Positions 4,618-55,031 of a stretch of DNA of 64,000 bases are shown here, piece by piece. Under the pieces are notes generated by a model, which worked only from the letters and a program-made list of their open reading frames with translations, did not search any database and was not told the DNA's origin. Numbering within the stretch: position 1 is the first letter of the stretch; each line of letters starts with the position of its first letter. Source of the DNA: an uncultured Candidatus Saccharibacteria bacterium (GTDB lineage Bacteria; Patescibacteriota; Minisyncoccia; Phycocordibacterales; Zambryskibacteraceae); contig CAYUOR010000002.1 of assembly GCA_964446535.1 (NCBI GenBank), positions 43,372 through 107,371 of the forward strand, given 5' to 3'. The position numbers were made by a program, and so were the translations under genes.

Positions 4618-6093
4618 TTATTCCACCCGATACTCGTCCCTGATCTTCTCTATCTCTTTTTCTTCTTCGGTTTGGTTTTTAGCACGAGCTTCCTGACCGA
4701 GGCGATCTAATTCTCCGGCTTCAAGGGTGTGTAACTCAAGCACTCTTTTTTCCAAATAAGTTTTATCGTTGAGTTTTGGATTTTCCAGCACTTCCGACAA
4801 AAGAATTTCGAGTATGAAACCGATTTTTGGACCAGGTCCGGAGCTTGTTAGTTTCATAATATCAGCACCATTGATTTGCAATTGTTTGACGGAAATCGGA
4901 TCACGTAAAACTTCTTCAATCATAGATTTATACTTACGTAAGCGGTACGGAGTCTCTTTTGGTCGGCCGGTGCCGACGCGATCCGAGGTGCGTAGACTAA
5001 TCAGGTCCCAAATTAGGTCTTTCCCCACGTTTCTTACTATTCGCCGGACGGCACTGGGTGTTATTTTTTCCGTATCAGAAAAAAACATGTGCCAGCGCAC
5101 AAGCTTAGTGGCCTTATCAACAGTTTCTTTTGGAAATTTCAAATTATCCATAATTTGTCTTGCCATTTTCGCCCCGACAACTTCGTGACCATAGAAGGTC
5201 CACTGATTATTTTTCCAGACCCGCGTATGCGGCTTAGCCACATCGTGAAGTAGGGCCGCCAAGCGAACATGGGGCGGAAAATTTTTCTTAGCGGCATGGT
5301 TAAGGGTGCGTAAAATATGTTCCCAGACGGTATAGGCGTGGGCTTGGTTTTGCTCCATACCTATTCCCTTCTCAAATTCTGGAGAAATAAATTTAAGCAC
5401 CCCAAGGCGGGCCGCCATATCTAGAGCCACCGCCGGCTCTTCAGAAAGAATAATTTTGATAAATTCGTCGCGAATACGTTCTCGCGATACGTGTGACAGG
5501 AGCTCTCTATTTTTAGCAATGGCGTTTTGTGTTTCAAGCTCAATGGCAAAGTTGAGCTCGCTTGCTAGACGAAGCGCTCGGAACATTCTGAGCGCATCTT
5601 CGCCGAAACGCTCTTCGGGCTTGCCTACCGTTCGAATGAGTTTCTTCGTTAGATCTTTCTCTCCACCGAAGGGATCAATCAGTGTTTCAGTTTTAATTTC
5701 ATACGCCATAGCGTTTATAGTAAAGTCGCGCCTAGCCAAATCTTCTTCAATAGTTTTTCCCCATCTGACACTATCTGGTCGACGAAAATCTGAGTAACCG
5801 GACTCGAGCCTAAAGGGAGTTATCTCTATTGTCCTTAGTGTCTCGTCTTGAGTTTCTTCGTTTACTACTCCGACTGTGCCAAACTCGTTTTCATAAAACG
5901 TTTTTGGAAAAATCTTTATGATTTCTTCCGGTGTTGCGCTGGTAGCAAGGTCCCAGTCCTTGGGCGTTCGACCAAGTATCAAGTCTCGAACACAACCGCC
6001 GACAAGAAAGTTCTCAAATCCGGCACGAGAAAGTTCTTCAGAGACCTCTCTTACTTCGTTCGGGATATTAAACAGATGTTTATCTTTCTTCAT
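4618..6093 (-). CDS. cca: CCA-adding tRNA nucleotidyltransferase / poly(A) polymerase family with HD domain
   Basis: polymerase-beta nucleotidyltransferase head GGCVRDLILGRTPKDWDLAT plus a C-terminal HD domain. Confidence 0.85.
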   Translation of the reverse strand: MKKDKHLFNIPNEVREVSEELSRAGFENFLVGGCVRDLILGRTPKDWDLATSATPEEIIKIFPKTFYENEFGTVGVVNEETQDETLRTIEITPFRLESGYSDFRRPDSVRWGKTIEEDLARRDFTINAMAYEIKTETLIDPFGGEKDLTKKLIRTVGKPEERFGEDALRMFRALRLASELNFAIELETQNAIAKNRELLSHVSRERIRDEFIKIILSEEPAVALDMAARLGVLKFISPEFEKGIGMEQNQAHAYTVWEHILRTLNHAAKKNFPPHVRLAALLHDVAKPHTRVWKNNQWTFYGHEVVGAKMARQIMDNLKFPKETVDKATKLVRWHMFFSDTEKITPSAVRRIVRNVGKDLIWDLISLRTSDRVGTGRPKETPYRLRKYKSMIEEVLRDPISVKQLQINGADIMKLTSSGPGPKIGFILEILLSEVLENPKLNDKTYLEKRVLELHTLEAGELDRLGQEARAKNQTEEEKEIEKIRDEYRVE

Positions 6094-6109: not shown

Positions 6110-6184
6110 TGGTGCCCCCAGCAGGAATCGAACCCACATCACCTGTTCCGAAGACAGGCACTTTATCCATTAAGCTATGGGGGC
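6110..6184 (-). tRNA. tRNA-Arg (anticodon TCG)
   Basis: cloverleaf on the minus strand with anticodon stem CCTGT/ACAGG and loop CTTCGGA. The T-loop TTCGATT and a 3' CCA are encoded. The T-stem contains G-U pairs. Confidence 0.6.
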
Positions 6185-6212
6185 TAAAGTAATGTTACAA
6201 GGGATTTTCGAG

Positions 6213-6284
6213 TGCGACTAGGGAGAATCGAACTCCCATCTCGTCCTTGGCAAGGACGCATTCTACCACTAAACCATAGTCGCA
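6213..6284 (-). tRNA. tRNA-Gly (anticodon GCC)
   Basis: D-arm GTTTAGTGGTAGAAT, anticodon loop TTGCCAA, T-loop TTCGATT, acceptor GCGACTA/TAGTCGC. Confidence 0.7.
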
Positions 6285-6354
6285 GGTGAGAAAGATAATA
6301 ACGTATTAGGAGAAAAAAATCGAGATTTTGAAATGACTTTATCGCATGCTAGGA

Positions 6355-6380
6355 TAGACGCTTACGGGCTGTACGAGTAC
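6355..6380 (+). repeat. tRNA acceptor-stem minihelix repeat, copy 1 (CGGGCTG-TACGAGTACAT-CAGCCCGA)
   Basis: the 7-bp stem is identical to the acceptor stems of the downstream tRNA-Pro genes, and the 11-nt loop is near-identical to copy 2. Confidence 0.4.
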
Positions 6381-6391
6381 ATCAGCCCGAT

Positions 6392-6416
6392 CACTCAGAA
6401 TAAAAAGTTATGCCAG
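6392..6416. other. Perfect palindrome AAAAGTTATGC-CA-GCATAACTTTT (possible bidirectional terminator or protein site)
   Basis: 11-bp inverted arms with A-run/T-run flanks, located between the minihelix and tRNA-Pro. Confidence 0.4.
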
Positions 6417-6427
6417 CATAACTTTTG

Positions 6428-6498
6428 TCCTTCGTTACGGGCTGTAGTACAGCGGTAGTATACACGCTTCGGGAGTGTGAGACCCGAGTTCGATTCTC
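6428..6498 (+). tRNA. tRNA-Pro (anticodon CGG)
   Basis: acceptor CGGGCTG/CAGCCCG, anticodon stem CACGC/GTGTG, loop TTCGGGA, T-arm CCGAG-TTCGATT-CTCGG. Confidence 0.75.
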
Positions 6499-6522
6499 GG
6501 CAGCCCGATGCCAAGTTTGGAA

Positions 6523-6593
6523 AAAATCTAGTCGGGCCGTAGTATATCGGTAGTATGCATGCTTTGGGAGCATGAGGGCCGAGTTCGATTCTC
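6523..6593 (+). tRNA. tRNA-Pro (anticodon TGG)
   Basis: acceptor CGGGCCG/CGGCCCG, anticodon stem CATGC/GCATG, loop TTTGGGA. Confidence 0.8.
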
Positions 6594-6605
6594 GGCGGCC
6601 CGAAA

Positions 6606-6631
6606 GAAAAAATGTACGGGCTGTATGAATA
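6606..6631 (+). repeat. tRNA acceptor-stem minihelix repeat, copy 2 (CGGGCTG-TATGAATACAT-CAGCCCGA)
   Basis: same stem as copy 1 and as the tRNA-Pro acceptor stems. Confidence 0.4.
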
Positions 6632-6679
6632 CATCAGCCCGAGCGTTCGGAATGAATATCAAAGCTCGCTTTGCTATTA

Positions 6680-6750
6680 TTCCTCACTACGGGCTGTAGT
6701 ATAACGGTAGTATCTGCCCATGGGGTGGGTAAGGCCCGGGTTCAATTCCC
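6680..6750 (+). tRNA. tRNA-Pro (anticodon GGG)
   Basis: acceptor CGGGCTG/CAGCCCG, anticodon stem TGCCC/GGGTA, loop ATGGGGT, T-arm CCGGG-TTCAATT-CCCGG. Confidence 0.7.
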
Positions 6751-6755
6751 GGCAG

Positions 6756-6826
6756 CCCGAAAGAAGCGGGATTAGTTTAGTGGCAAAACGACAGTTTTCC
6801 AAACTGTAGTTGGGAGTTCGATTCTC
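6756..6826 (+). tRNA. tRNA-Gly (anticodon TCC)
   Basis: acceptor GCGGGAT/ATCCCGC, anticodon stem ACAGT/ACTGT, loop TTTCCAA, T-loop TTCGATT. Confidence 0.8.
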
Positions 6827-6846
6827 CCATCCCGCACTTTTTCCCT

Positions 6847-7257
6847 CTAAATAACGATATTTTCAAGTATTTCCGCTCGTGCGATTCTATTTTTCTCATC
6901 AATTTTGACCGTAATAAGATCAAGCTGCCATTCTGAGTCAATGTTTTTTTCTAAGAGATAACTTTGTATAGCTCGGTGAAGGCGCCTTATTTTCCAGTGG
7001 TGCATGTTATCTTCCGGCCTAAATTCACCCCTTCTAGTTTCATCAGAAACTTTTTTGTTTAAAGTTACACGAGAAACACTTTTTACTTCAATAAAGTGAA
7101 TAATTCCCTGTTTTTCAGCAACAATGTCTATTTCACCCCACTTTCTTAGGTAATTTCTATCTTTTATCTTAAATTCAAGTTTTTCTAAAAATCTACAAGC
7201 AATATTTTCTCCTATATCACCTAATTTACGTTTACTGGTTCTTTTATCTTCTTCCAT
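6847..7257 (-). CDS. yraN: UPF0102/YraN family endonuclease
   Basis: YraN signature GE.IA..FL...G..I...N........GEIDIVA. Confidence 0.8.
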   Translation of the reverse strand: MEEDKRTSKRKLGDIGENIACRFLEKLEFKIKDRNYLRKWGEIDIVAEKQGIIHFIEVKSVSRVTLNKKVSDETRRGEFRPEDNMHHWKIRRLHRAIQSYLLEKNIDSEWQLDLITVKIDEKNRIARAEILENIVI

Positions 7258-8498: not shown

Positions 8499-8567
8499 TC
8501 ATTCTCATTCTAGAACAAGTTGTGGGGATAACAAGTTTGCGAATGAAGTATTTTGGCTTAGAATCTA

Positions 8568-9725
8568 ATGTATAAGCTATCTCTTAAATTGACTAAAATT
8601 ACGAACATAAGTAGAGAGGGAGTTCTTAAATTAGTCTTTACGGTGTTTGTTGCGTTTTTCCTTGTGCCGTCTATAAGTTTCGCCGACTTTGTGTGGAGCT
8701 CGATTGGCTCTAACAGTGGTCAGGGATTCGGAGAGTGCGCCAACCCACAGGTAACTTGTATTTTTAGCGGCTCTCCTTACGAGACCGCGAACTGTACTAT
8801 CAGTGATGAATTATCGGGAACTTCTTATGAGAATTATGTTTGCAACGAAGCAAATCTGGGACAGAATTTGACGGAAAGACAAGGAACGTCTTGCGTTAAT
8901 CCGCCAAACACCGGCACCTGGAGTGAAGATTATTATGAATGTCAGTGGTCTGGTCCCATCACACTCACCACATCCATAAGTTCCGGACAGGGAACAGTCT
9001 CTGCACCAGGAATAAGCTGTCCAGGTGATTGTAGCGAAAACTTTAGTTACGGTACCTGGGTAACAATTGTTGCGACACCAGATTCTGCCAATGGATACAG
9101 CTTCGGTTCTTGGGCGGGGGCGTGCCTGGGGCAGACTTCCATTTGTTCTGTACAGATGAACGGAAGCAGGAGTACCAGTGTAAGTTTTAACGCCCCTGCG
9201 GCGCCGACAGTATCTCTAAACGCAAGTCCAAACCCGGTTTCTTATAACAGCGCATCAAATCTTTCCTGGTCTTCATCTAATGCCACAAGCTGTACTGCGT
9301 CGGGCGCCTGGTCAGGTTCCAAGGCGCTTAGCGGAACACAATCAACAGGCAATTTAATTTCCGATCAAACCTACACTCTTACATGTAACGGCGCGGGCGG
9401 CTCGGCATCGCGCTCGGTAACTGTGGGGGTCCTTAGTGGCGGCATGTCCGTTTCCTGCTCCGCCAACCCGACAACAGCTCTCCTCGGGCAAAACATAACT
9501 TGGACAGCCACAGTCTCGGGCGGTGTCCCGCCATACACTTATTCTTGGGCAGGTACCGACATACCTACGACACCCGCGCCGTCAACCAATCCTTATACGA
9601 GAAGTTACAGCACTATCGGGCAGAAGAACGCTACGGTAACCGTTACGGGAGGAAATTCTGCACAGGCAACTTGTCCGCCGGCCGTGGTGCAAATAAACTT
9701 CAATCCAGACTTTGAAGAATTTTAA
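8568..9725 (+). CDS. Secreted Ser/Thr/Gly-rich surface protein with divergent InlB-B-repeat-like domain and C-terminal PKD-like domain (paralog A)
   Basis: signal peptide; GISCPGDC...GY.F..W.G.C domain; C-terminal ~95 aa shared with the downstream paralog, ending in NFNPDFEEF. Confidence 0.6.
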   Translation: MYKLSLKLTKITNISREGVLKLVFTVFVAFFLVPSISFADFVWSSIGSNSGQGFGECANPQVTCIFSGSPYETANCTISDELSGTSYENYVCNEANLGQNLTERQGTSCVNPPNTGTWSEDYYECQWSGPITLTTSISSGQGTVSAPGISCPGDCSENFSYGTWVTIVATPDSANGYSFGSWAGACLGQTSICSVQMNGSRSTSVSFNAPAAPTVSLNASPNPVSYNSASNLSWSSSNATSCTASGAWSGSKALSGTQSTGNLISDQTYTLTCNGAGGSASRSVTVGVLSGGMSVSCSANPTTALLGQNITWTATVSGGVPPYTYSWAGTDIPTTPAPSTNPYTRSYSTIGQKNATVTVTGGNSAQATCPPAVVQINFNPDFEEF

Positions 9726-49679: not shown

Positions 49680-49750
49680 GTTACTCTCCTTTTTCCAAAA
49701 ATCTTCCTTATAAACAATATCATATAAAAAGAAAACCGCCCGAAGTTACT

Positions 49751-49939
49751 TCACGACTCGGGCGGCAACTCAATTTTGAAGGTTTCGTGCCACTTGAGGT
49801 GGGCTTCCATACTGCCTAGAATGTTTTTCCCGCAGGTTTTGCACGGTCCGTTGCAGCAGGCACGGACGTGATACATGCGCTGATTCATGTGGCATCGGCA
49901 GAAACACTCCGACCATACAGGCAATTTAAGGTTCTTCAC
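49751..49939 (-). CDS. Small Cys/His-rich zinc-ribbon-like protein (GTG start, hypothetical)
   Basis: CxCxC...CCxxPCxxC pattern; GGAGGA Shine-Dalgarno-like sequence upstream of the GTG. Confidence 0.35.
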   Translation of the reverse strand: MKNLKLPVWSECFCRCHMNQRMYHVRACCNGPCKTCGKNILGSMEAHLKWHETFKIELPPES

Positions 49940-50433: not shown

Positions 50434-50852
50434 TGGTGGAGGTGGCGGGAATGAGCCCGCGTCCAAGGAAATGTCTCCGACGAATCTAGCACGCCTAGAC
50501 CGATTTTTCCGCCTTACGGCGAATCTCGATTCTCAAACTATAAATCGGACAAAACATTTGAGATTCAAAGCTCTTTAGTTTGGCGCCGAGAGGAGCACTC
50601 TCTGCGTTACAATCCGACAGATAAGCACCTGAGATCTCGTATCGGATGGCGAGATAACAGGCGTTCGCTTAGGCGAGCTTACGCTCGAGCGTAGGCGAAA
50701 GCAAAGTCGTTTGCCGTAAAGTACGGCGAAACAATAGACTTTGCCCGTGCGACGATATTGTCAGCACTTAAATTTTCCAAGGGTTTAAGGAGTTCTTGGA
50801 GCTCCGCGTGCCACGGCGGGGAACTGGTTTCCATGTCGAAACTGGCACCCCC
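50434..50852 (-). ncRNA. ssrA: tmRNA (SsrA)
   Basis: 5' end GGGGGUGCCAGUUUCGACAUGG matches the tmRNA consensus GGGGCUGAUUCUGGAUUCGAC. The 3' end GGACGCGGGCUCAUUCCCGCCACCUCCACCA matches the tRNA-like T-arm/acceptor GGACGGGGGUUCAAAUCCCCCCAGCUCCACCA. There is an internal tag ORF GCA AAC GAC UUU GCU UUC GCC UAC GCU CGA GCG UAA. smpB lies immediately upstream. Confidence 0.85.
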
Positions 50853-54876: not shown

Positions 54877-54957
54877 AAAGACCTCCTTTTTGAGCTGAAA
54901 AAGTCTCCTGCAACTATACTATTTTAATCCCACAAAGTCAAGAGATATGAAAACTAG

Positions 54958-55031
54958 TCCGCCCGCCACGATTCGAACGTGGGACCCCCGAGGTATAAGC
55001 TCGATGCTCTAACCAGCTGAGCTACGGGCGG
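54958..55031 (-). tRNA. tRNA-Ile with anticodon TAT (UAU), C1-G72 acceptor pair
   Basis: D-arm GCTCAGCTGGTTAGAGC (Ile/Ala/Met type), anticodon stem TCGAG/CTCGG, loop CTTATAC, T-arm CCACG-TTCGAAT-CGTGG, acceptor CCGCCCG/CGGGCGG. Confidence 0.65.

Follow-up and report, generated by a model that had tools for sequence, protein, structure and literature searches.

The leader of a bacterial pre-tRNA is commonly regarded as a disposable stretch with no structure. In organelles, vestigial tRNA stem-loops act as processing signals, as in mitochondrial 'tRNA punctuation' and the t-elements of plant mitochondria, and acceptor-TΨC minihelices are model substrates of RNase P, the CCA-adding enzyme and aminoacyl-tRNA synthetases. 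Four-segment attenuators such as the trp leader choose between 1:2 / 3:4 and 2:3 pairing, and the tyrT operon of Escherichia coli carries repeats (rtT RNA) of 178 bp that lie downstream of the tRNA and contain the 3' end of tRNA-Tyr. Fragments of tRNA genes that remain in prokaryotic genomes are usually 3' parts flanking kilobase-sized, integrase-carrying elements. One study attributes partial tRNA genes in prokaryotes to integrative elements or CRISPR activity (PMC9897764). Here we describe a module of about 73 nt that precedes tRNA-Pro genes in a 64,000-nt stretch of DNA (hereafter the window; contig CAYUOR010000002.1 of assembly GCA_964446535.1, positions 43,372 to 107,371) from an uncultured Candidatus Saccharibacteria bacterium. 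It consists of a hairpin whose arms repeat the acceptor stem of the following tRNA (hairpin 1), a linker, a second hairpin (hairpin 2) and a short tail. Searches of Rfam and the literature returned no description of it. We tentatively read the module as a conserved, tRNA-derived, structured pre-tRNA leader that would have spread by tandem duplication in register with the tRNA start and would be removed by RNase P.

The module shares traits with each of the systems named above and has the defining features of none. Like the organelle stem-loops, hairpin 1 is a short tRNA-derived hairpin between or before genes of a polycistron, with the tRNA ends kept and a probable origin by tandem duplication; unlike them, it is bacterial, stands before a functional tRNA of the same kind and is joined to the linker and hairpin 2, and its stem tracks the downstream tRNA, which punctuation does not require. 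With the acceptor-TΨC minihelix it has in common a helix of roughly 10–12 bp whose lower 7 bp are authentic acceptor stem, but it has no T-loop or CCA, its discriminator is variable, and it is embedded in a leader instead of being a free RNA. As in attenuators, four mutually compatible strands in the order a, a', A, A' (arms a and a' of hairpin 1, strands A and A' of the tRNA) permit two exclusive folds, yet there is no terminator or coding sequence, and segment pair 3:4 is the tRNA acceptor stem. The tyrT repeats, too, are repeated units of a tRNA operon that hold a piece of a tRNA, whereas the module lies upstream and contains an acceptor-mimicking hairpin that the tyrT repeats do not have. 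As with the partial tRNA genes of the study cited above, a tRNA gene fragment has been duplicated beside an intact gene; here, however, the fragment is the 5' start, joined by an inverted copy, the repeats are 64 nt apart, and mobile genes are absent.

A preliminary description of the window had reported two 26-nt elements that reproduce the acceptor stem of neighbouring tRNA-Pro genes, and both are present on the forward strand (CGGGCTGTACGAGTACATCAGCCCGA and CGGGCTGTATGAATACATCAGCCCGA; Table 1). Their consensus matches twice in the window and not once in 100 dinucleotide-preserving shuffles, and they fold into hairpins of -12.7 and -15.0 kcal/mol (z = -3.8 and -5.7 against shuffled controls). 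What had been missed is the larger unit to which they belong: the distance from the start of the element to the start of the tRNA-Pro with the matching stem is exactly 73 nt in both cases, and a unit of 146 nt, made up of the element, a 47-nt hairpin spacer and the tRNA, is duplicated with 74% identity, the two spacers forming hairpins from different sequences. The stem CGGGCTG/CAGCCCG had been assigned to all three tRNA-Pro genes of the cluster; it is shared by the CGG and GGG genes but not by tRNA-Pro(TGG). Similarly, a perfect 11-bp palindrome upstream of tRNA-Pro(CGG) exists, not at 6392–6416 but as the core of hairpin 2 of the first module. ARAGORN calls neither element, the Rfam tRNA model RF00005 gives no match to either even at E ≤ 10, and an Rfam search over 6280–6860 finds tRNAs only and nothing on the module at that same threshold. 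Between 6000 and 7000 there are no terminator-like sites; in the second module hairpin 1 is followed by GCGTTCGGAA and not by a T run.

We fetched 80 species-level loci of relatives by homology of the CCA enzyme (55–85% protein identity). All derive from metagenome-assembled genomes (MAGs) of the Parcubacteria/Zambryskibacteria type, Parcubacteria being ultra-small bacteria, and most have the same tRNA cluster beside the gene for this enzyme, cca. Exact or near-exact elements were found in L005 (two copies, in the layout of the window), L001, L002, L011, L014 and L020, and none in the equally close relatives L003, L004, L006, L009, L010 and L012. A covariance model built from 15 module versions gave 9 strong matches in 7 genomes among the window and the 80 loci, and there are two further copies, both divergent, in L115 and L155. 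Across the 80 orthologous loci, upstream copies of the tRNA 5' end precede 17 of 95 tRNA-Pro genes as against 1 of 192 Arg/Gly genes, the single case being spurious. A pattern scan of metagenome contigs returned 108 stretches, most of them fortuitous and located in G+C-rich DNA; 17 matches, from 16 contigs, have a tRNA-Pro 68–77 nt downstream. Further relatives reached through CCA enzyme homologues contributed one copy in L190 and a pair in L199, and the last two relative contigs fetched have loci without the tRNA cluster. This amounts to 19 distinct versions, all of them 68–78 nt before a tRNA: two each from the window, L005, L115 and L155, and one each from L001, L002, L011, L014, L020, the L089 type, L097, L118, L130, L190 and L199. 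The preliminary description had expected neutral duplication scars to be missing from orthologous tRNA clusters; the elements are conserved in the clusters of these relatives. On a separate note, the cca contigs from L189, L193, L194, L196, L198, L201, L202 and L207 end 40–220 nt upstream of cca, at the edge of the tRNA cluster. Assemblies are probably interrupted there by the repeated tRNA-Pro sequences, so that modules would be under-sampled in short-read MAGs.

The versions share one order over about 73 nt, namely hairpin 1, the single-stranded linker GCGYTCGGAA, hairpin 2, the tail TCAYTA and position +1 of the tRNA. RNAalifold recovers both hairpins. In an alignment of 17 sequences, standard pairs occupy 90.6% of the cells, compared with 78% in shuffled alignments and 31–48% with slid partners; two-sided changes occur in 14 of 22 pairs, and the observed covariation score was reached by 0 of 500 shuffles. 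Hairpin 2 has a conserved GGAA/TTCC base and a freely variable upper stem, its pairing being kept through covariation that includes G-U pairs. As judged from the alignment, covariation thus supports both hairpins.

The 26-nt elements had been taken for autonomous 7-bp minihelices closed by a conserved 11-nt loop. Comparison with the relatives replaces this picture: each element is the first hairpin (10–11 bp) of a larger two-hairpin leader, and the supposed loop is an eroded extension of the stem, which in relatives has 10–11 bp and a 4-nt loop. In L020 and L097 the stem is a perfect 11 bp with a 4-nt loop, CGGGCTGTATG-ANTA-CATACAGCCCG (for example AATA). Stems of 10–11 bp also occur in the L089 type, L011 and L014, and in L011, L014, the L089 type, L115 and L118 the upper stems differ yet remain complementary (TCTT/AAGA, TAC/GTA, TACA/TGTG, AAGC/GCTT). 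From the copies in the window, L005, L001, L002 and L130 one A has been lost and U8 is without a partner, so that in the window 7 bp are followed by a bulge and then 3 bp. The lower 7 bp being the acceptor stem, the helix corresponds to the approximately 12-bp helix of a minihelix. The loops of 3–6 nt vary (AGTA, AATA, ATTA, GATA, TCC, TAAGTC); none of those tabulated is a 7-nt T-loop (TΨCRANY), and no CCA follows hairpin 1. The base after the stem had been described as a retained discriminator A, but of the 17 versions tabulated 5 have A, 11 have G (among them L001, where it stands behind a mismatched terminal pair) and 1 has T; outside this table, L190 has A and the Arg version of L199 has T. 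As the discriminator is not conserved, recognition or aminoacylation by ProRS is argued against. The two differences between the window elements (C/T at position 10, G/A at position 13) do not covary with tRNA position 13, since one copy in L005 (L005a) combines T10 with G13; they are loop or upper-stem variation. The linker bears some likeness to a T-loop, as TTCGAAA in L014 and L115a and as TTCAAAT in the L089 type, but the likeness does not hold across versions and this reading was dropped.

These features bear on the idea that hairpin 1 is a form of tRNA-like punctuation, a 10–11-bp stand-in for the acceptor/T-arm stack that would be cut 5' by RNase P and 3' by RNase Z, yielding a hairpin of about 26 nt (possibly CCA-tagged) and/or a 47-nt RNA of linker and hairpin 2. 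A stem length held at 10–12 bp in all versions while the upper-stem sequence varies would fit this idea, as would the CTCACTA found upstream of internal copies just as upstream of real tRNAs, and the fact that the tRNA-Pro and tRNA-Gly genes of the cluster do not encode CCA while the gene for the CCA-adding enzyme adjoins. The missing T-loop, CCA and conserved discriminator speak against it, enzymes that read structure need no stem that tracks the downstream tRNA, and promoter-proximal copies have nothing upstream from which to be separated. Overall we consider it quite unlikely, while hairpin 1 is a possible, putative substrate of RNase P, RNase Z or the CCA enzyme.

The central observation is that the lower stem of hairpin 1 follows the acceptor stem of the tRNA immediately downstream. 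In 16 versions it is of the CGGGCTG/CAGCCCG type, with zero to two single-base drift changes per module, and in all of these the downstream tRNA-Pro has the acceptor CGGGCTG/CAGCCCG whatever its anticodon (CGG, TGG or GGG), while other tRNA-Pro genes in the same clusters carry other acceptor stems. In L115b both hairpin 1 and the downstream tRNA-Pro(GGG) have CGGGCCG/CGGCCCG, and the upper stem (TAAGC..GCTTT) and hairpin 2 of this version resemble the CGGGCTG-type module of L118. In L199 the module, assigned to the family by its linker GGCGCTCGGAGA, hairpin 2 and tail CCTCCTCACTT, precedes tRNA-Arg(TCG) with the acceptor GCCCCCG/CGGGGGC. Its hairpin 1 is GCCCCC...CGGGGTC (in full GCCCCCTGTCTTTACAAGGCGGGGTC), the 5' arm being the 5' strand GCCCCC(G) of the tRNA-Arg and the 3' arm its 3' strand CGGGGGC with one change, and the upper stem, GTCTT/AAGGC, is similar to the one in the Pro module of L011. 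Tracking thus covers Pro U6:A67, Pro C6:G67 and, in one relative, tRNA-Arg, so the module family is not restricted to tRNA-Pro. In none of the versions do the lower 7 bp carry a compensated change independent of the tRNA; there are only single drift changes, in one arm or the other. A merely stable 5' structure need not resemble the tRNA, which argues that the match either matters or is continually re-copied. The strand bias of G-U against A-C changes, considered as a way of telling RNA from DNA in hairpin 1, stood at 3 versus 3 and was uninformative.

To assess whether the module could be a decaying duplication scar, we compared it with silent sites in the adjoining gene. Comparison of the window with L001, L002, L005, L011, L014 and L020 gives just 23–36% identity at the 4-fold degenerate sites of cca, which are thus saturated, while the mean column identity of the module is 75%, the positions of linker and tail are near-invariant and compensatory changes have kept the hairpins. 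Since silent sites are saturated while the module is kept, a decaying scar is excluded and the module should be under selection, although part of its conservation may come from the copying mechanism itself.

The clearest trace of such a mechanism is found in L199, where the module forms a tandem repeat with a period of 74 nt, 2.1 copies and 100% identity, the last partial copy of which consists of the tail and the first 6 nt of tRNA-Arg. Three module copies in all lie at 2682–2909 before tRNA-Arg(TCG), two of them identical 74-nt units and one, older and furthest upstream, degenerate; a TAGGAT box lies upstream of the copies at about 2636. This perfect duplication in register with the tRNA start makes the duplication origin proposed in the preliminary description plausible. 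Direct repeats of 11–21 nt, composed of tail and tRNA start, flank the module in the window (11–12 nt), L005b (17 nt, as in L199), L002 (21 nt) and L020; they fit tandem duplication and would also permit precise loss. Taken together, the sequences lead us to infer that the module spread by tandem duplication in register with the tRNA start, in which case a copy of the first bases of the tRNA would automatically precede the next unit.

The same observations can be accommodated by hairpin 1 being a by-product, which we consider possible though somewhat unlikely. The functional unit would then be an ordinary leader of hairpin 2 and UCAYUA, upstream of which tandem duplication repeatedly makes a copy of the tRNA start; short-patch template switching (quasi-palindrome correction, direct-repeat copying) would keep the arms matched to the tRNA, and selection would only purge variants whose loose 5' strand disturbs tRNA folding. 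Besides the perfect 74-nt duplication including tRNA nucleotides 1–6 and the direct repeats in L002, L005b and L020, several points fit: leaders with hairpin 2 and without hairpin 1 do exist before other tRNA-Pro genes (for example L001 and the TGG gene of L005), the distribution is patchy with frequent losses, and 8 modules show uncompensated drift in either arm. On the other hand, the linker GCGYTCGGAA lies outside any repeat and yet is conserved across saturated divergence, the identity between hairpin 1 and tRNA start in L115b spans just 9–10 nt with differing flanks, which is short for conversion of the recombination type, and in both L115b and L199 the 3' arm has been rewritten as well.

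A cluster in which gene order and orientation vary among relatives is recombinationally active, and it is conceivable that the module is an element at the level of DNA, such as a palindromic recombination or protein-binding site or the footprint of a mobile element (integrase att site, homing-endonuclease target or miniature inverted-repeat transposable element, MITE). Endonuclease-like open reading frames (ORFs) are inserted in L001 and L020, and partial tRNA-Pro copies abound in these clusters. The module is, however, unaccompanied by an integrase or transposase, its flanking repeats range from 9 to 21 nt where a target-site duplication would have a fixed length, what is repeated is the 5' part of the tRNA with only 64 nt and no ORF between the copies, and hairpin 2 is kept by covariation including G-U pairs, as expected for RNA. 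A scan of a viral contig collection with the linker/tail pattern gave 0 matches. We regard this reading as very improbable. A MITE or insertion sequence was rejected on account of the variable flanking repeats and of inverted repeats that are weak, with no clear terminal ones by inspection. The border of an integrated element was rejected as well, as it needs a repeat of the tRNA 3' part and an integrase. A group I intron or ribozyme found no support in Rfam, which gave no match to either in this region of the window or in L045. A leader peptide was likewise discarded on inspection of the sequence: short ORFs do cross module 2 and L005a, but module 1 lacks an ATG, a ribosome-binding site is absent, and in L020 the frame is shifted. 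An internal promoter in linker or hairpin 2 was set aside too, with no conserved -10 box by inspection and a promoter scan that gave only the site upstream of module 1 (Table 1).

That site belongs to a recurrent arrangement. The TAGGAT box lies 9 nt before hairpin 1 in module 1 of the window, L005a, the L089 type and L115a; in L020 the distance is 15 nt. A box 9 nt before tRNA-Pro(CGG) itself is present in L001, L002 and L190, which have no promoter-proximal module. With the box just upstream, promoter-proximal modules would be at the extreme 5' end of the primary transcript. Other modules, including module 2 of the window, follow a preceding tRNA-Pro by about 13–40 nt.

Arm a equals the 5' strand A of the tRNA and arm a' its 3' strand A', and all four pairings are possible in 19 of 19 versions. 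This leaves two mutually exclusive folds, a:a' with A:A' (hairpin and cloverleaf) or a:A' with a':A (nested), and in the latter the 73-nt leader is inserted as an additional arm between positions 9 and 10 of the tRNA. Thermodynamic models rate the two folds as competitive: the probability of the nested fold according to ViennaRNA is 0.99 for module 1 of the window and 0.34–0.93, depending on the flanks, for module 2; by module the values run from 0.07 to 0.99, and across all versions the range is 0.002 to 0.99. Shuffling the 3' arm of module 2 lowers the predicted native acceptor pairing from 0.66 to 0.15, and deletion of the module raises it to 0.94–0.99. According to these models the upstream copy would not be inert, because without its partner arm it would compete for the 3' strand of the tRNA, which supports locking up both extra strands as a minimal function of hairpin 1. 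That the winning fold also decides how much of the precursor matures, which would be a regulatory function, is a hypothesis. Transcription order and tertiary structure should favour the local hairpin.

In the structured-leader reading that we tentatively prefer, the module would be co-transcribed with the tRNA, and hairpin 1 would be the first to form, so that the duplicated 5' strand is sequestered together with the anti-acceptor 3' arm. The tRNA could then close its own acceptor stem, and RNase P would cut behind UCAYUA and remove the whole leader. The nested alternative would block correct 5' maturation, and the leader may in this way set the amount of precursor that matures. Several points weigh against this reading. 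The tracking rests on two independent events (L115b and L199), and short-patch copying could yield it without any function at the RNA level, be it by template switching between nearby direct or inverted repeats or by in-register tandem duplication. The pattern used on the metagenome contigs was fixed at CGGGYTGTA...CAGCYCR, so that lower-stem conservation among those matches is partly built in. The module is dispensable, being carried by only 7 genomes of the window and its 80 species-level relatives, and the reading assigns no role to the conserved single-stranded linker. The predicted weight of the alternative fold is uncertain, as neither the tertiary structure of the tRNA nor co-transcriptional kinetics enter into nearest-neighbour models. 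Finally, the start of transcription, the cut by RNase P and the order of folding are inferences, those on transcription and cleavage after the tail drawn from what holds for bacterial tRNA operons generally.

Table 1. Features of the tRNA-Pro cluster and its surroundings in the 64,000-nt window.
Feature	Position	Strand	Remarks
cca, gene for the CCA-adding enzyme	4618–6093	-	flanks the tRNA cluster
tRNA-Arg(TCG) and tRNA-Gly(GCC)	within 6110–6283	-	
Promoter-like site	6328–6355	+	TTGAAA, 16-nt spacer, TG-n-TAGGAT; end of -10 box 9 nt 5' of hairpin 1 of module 1
Module 1, hairpin 1 ('minihelix 1')	6365–6390	+	CGGGCTGTACGAGTACATCAGCCCGA; 5' arm CGGGCTGTA = nt 1–9 of downstream tRNA-Pro(CGG); 3' arm CAGCCCG = its 3' acceptor strand
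Module 1, linker, hairpin 2 and tail	6391–6437	+	linker TCACTCAGAA = diverged GCGYTCGGAA; hairpin 2 core arms 6403–6413/6416–6426, outer pairs 6398–6400/6431–6433; tail TTCGTTA directly abuts +1 of tRNA-Pro(CGG)
tRNA-Pro(CGG)	6438–6508	+	acceptor CGGGCTG/CAGCCCG, discriminator A, CCA not encoded
tRNA-Pro(TGG)	6533–6603	+	acceptor CGGGCCG/CGGCCCG; no module upstream in this genome
Module 2, hairpin 1 ('minihelix 2')	6617–6642	+	CGGGCTGTATGAATACATCAGCCCGA; starts 13 nt past the end of tRNA-Pro(TGG)
Module 2, linker, hairpin 2 and tail	6643–6689	+	linker GCGTTCGGAA; hairpin 2 at 6649–6683; tail TCACTA
tRNA-Pro(GGG)	6690–6760	+	acceptor CGGGCTG/CAGCCCG
tRNA-Gly(TCC)	6766–6837	+	5 nt beyond tRNA-Pro(GGG)

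Apart from cca, a protein of the UPF0102/YraN type flanks the cluster, and other flanking ORFs of the window are read as RNase Y, ClpP, HU and exonuclease III; the equivalent neighbours in relatives match the Pfam families RNase_Y_N, CLP_protease, Bac_DNA_binding and Exo_endo_phos. The bacterial AUA codon is normally decoded by a lysidine-modified CAU tRNA and a UAU tRNA-Ile is unusual, but the window encodes a tRNA-Ile with the anticodon TAT (UAU) at 54957–55031 (-). A G+C-rich hairpin at 49735–49765 (-), CCGCCCGAGTCGTGAAGTAACTTCGGGCGG, shares CCGCCCG with the 5' end of this tRNA-Ile and has a T-rich 3' flank. It was rejected as a further element: we take it to be terminator-like and its likeness to the tRNA-Ile, whose gene is 5 kb away, to be coincidental. 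It lies about 670 nt downstream of a transfer-messenger RNA (tmRNA) gene at 50434–50852 (-; Rfam, 96 bits).

The tRNA clusters of the relatives contain further peculiarities. Around tRNA-Pro(UGG) in L038, L039, L040, L045, L046, L052 and L079, and for tRNA-Pro(CGG) in L006 and L130, one tRNA is nested in another (for example L045, about 8560–8860, -): the 5' half of a second tRNA-Pro, extending as far as the anticodon loop, is followed by a leader, a complete tRNA-Pro, a trailer, a conserved hairpin and the matching 3' half. Trailer and leader are complementary over about 14 bp, the hairpin AGAAACAT-ATT-ATGTTTCT shows compensatory changes in L046, and the outer halves, joined in silico, are recognised by ARAGORN as tRNA-Pro genes; L076 has the 5' half only. 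Rfam shows no group I intron in the nested arrangement, and no description of it was found in the literature. On the broadest reading of the module, given last and held to be unlikely, this nesting of tRNA in tRNA in other Parcubacteria could be a related device. A conserved 71-nt gene resembling tRNA-Pro(GGG) and not called by ARAGORN is found in L001 (downstream of tRNA-Pro(GGG)), L004 and L017. Its D-loop is AAAAGCA (no GG) and its T-loop AGCGTTA or AGCATTA (no TTC). None of its stems is broken, and where the genomes differ in the anticodon stem the differences compensate each other; the gene may encode a tRNA without the usual elbow contacts between D-loop and T-loop. ORFs lie in or beside the tRNA-Pro cluster in L001 (2195–2620 and 1090–1767) and L020 (6368–7348); the latter matches Pfam HNH_repeat, a family associated with homing endonucleases, and both L001 ORFs have LAGLIDADG-like motifs and no Pfam match. 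The order and orientation of the Gly, Arg and Pro tRNAs differ among close relatives, which marks the cluster as a recombination hot spot.

It is conceivable, if unlikely, that the module represents an undescribed class of cis-acting pre-tRNA leaders general to Parcubacteria, in which an acceptor/anti-acceptor hairpin matched to its tRNA (Pro or Arg so far) competes with the acceptor stem of that tRNA and gates its 5' maturation. If true, this would amount to an attenuator-like switch acting on tRNA processing instead of on transcription or translation. For annotation, the hairpins are not tRNA pseudogenes, and the motif could join RNA family libraries. If only duplication and template switching are at work, the module would be a clean natural example of how in-register duplication at the 5' border of a tRNA makes stable hairpins; if the match is functional, it would constitute a new control or safeguard of tRNA maturation in genome-reduced bacteria.

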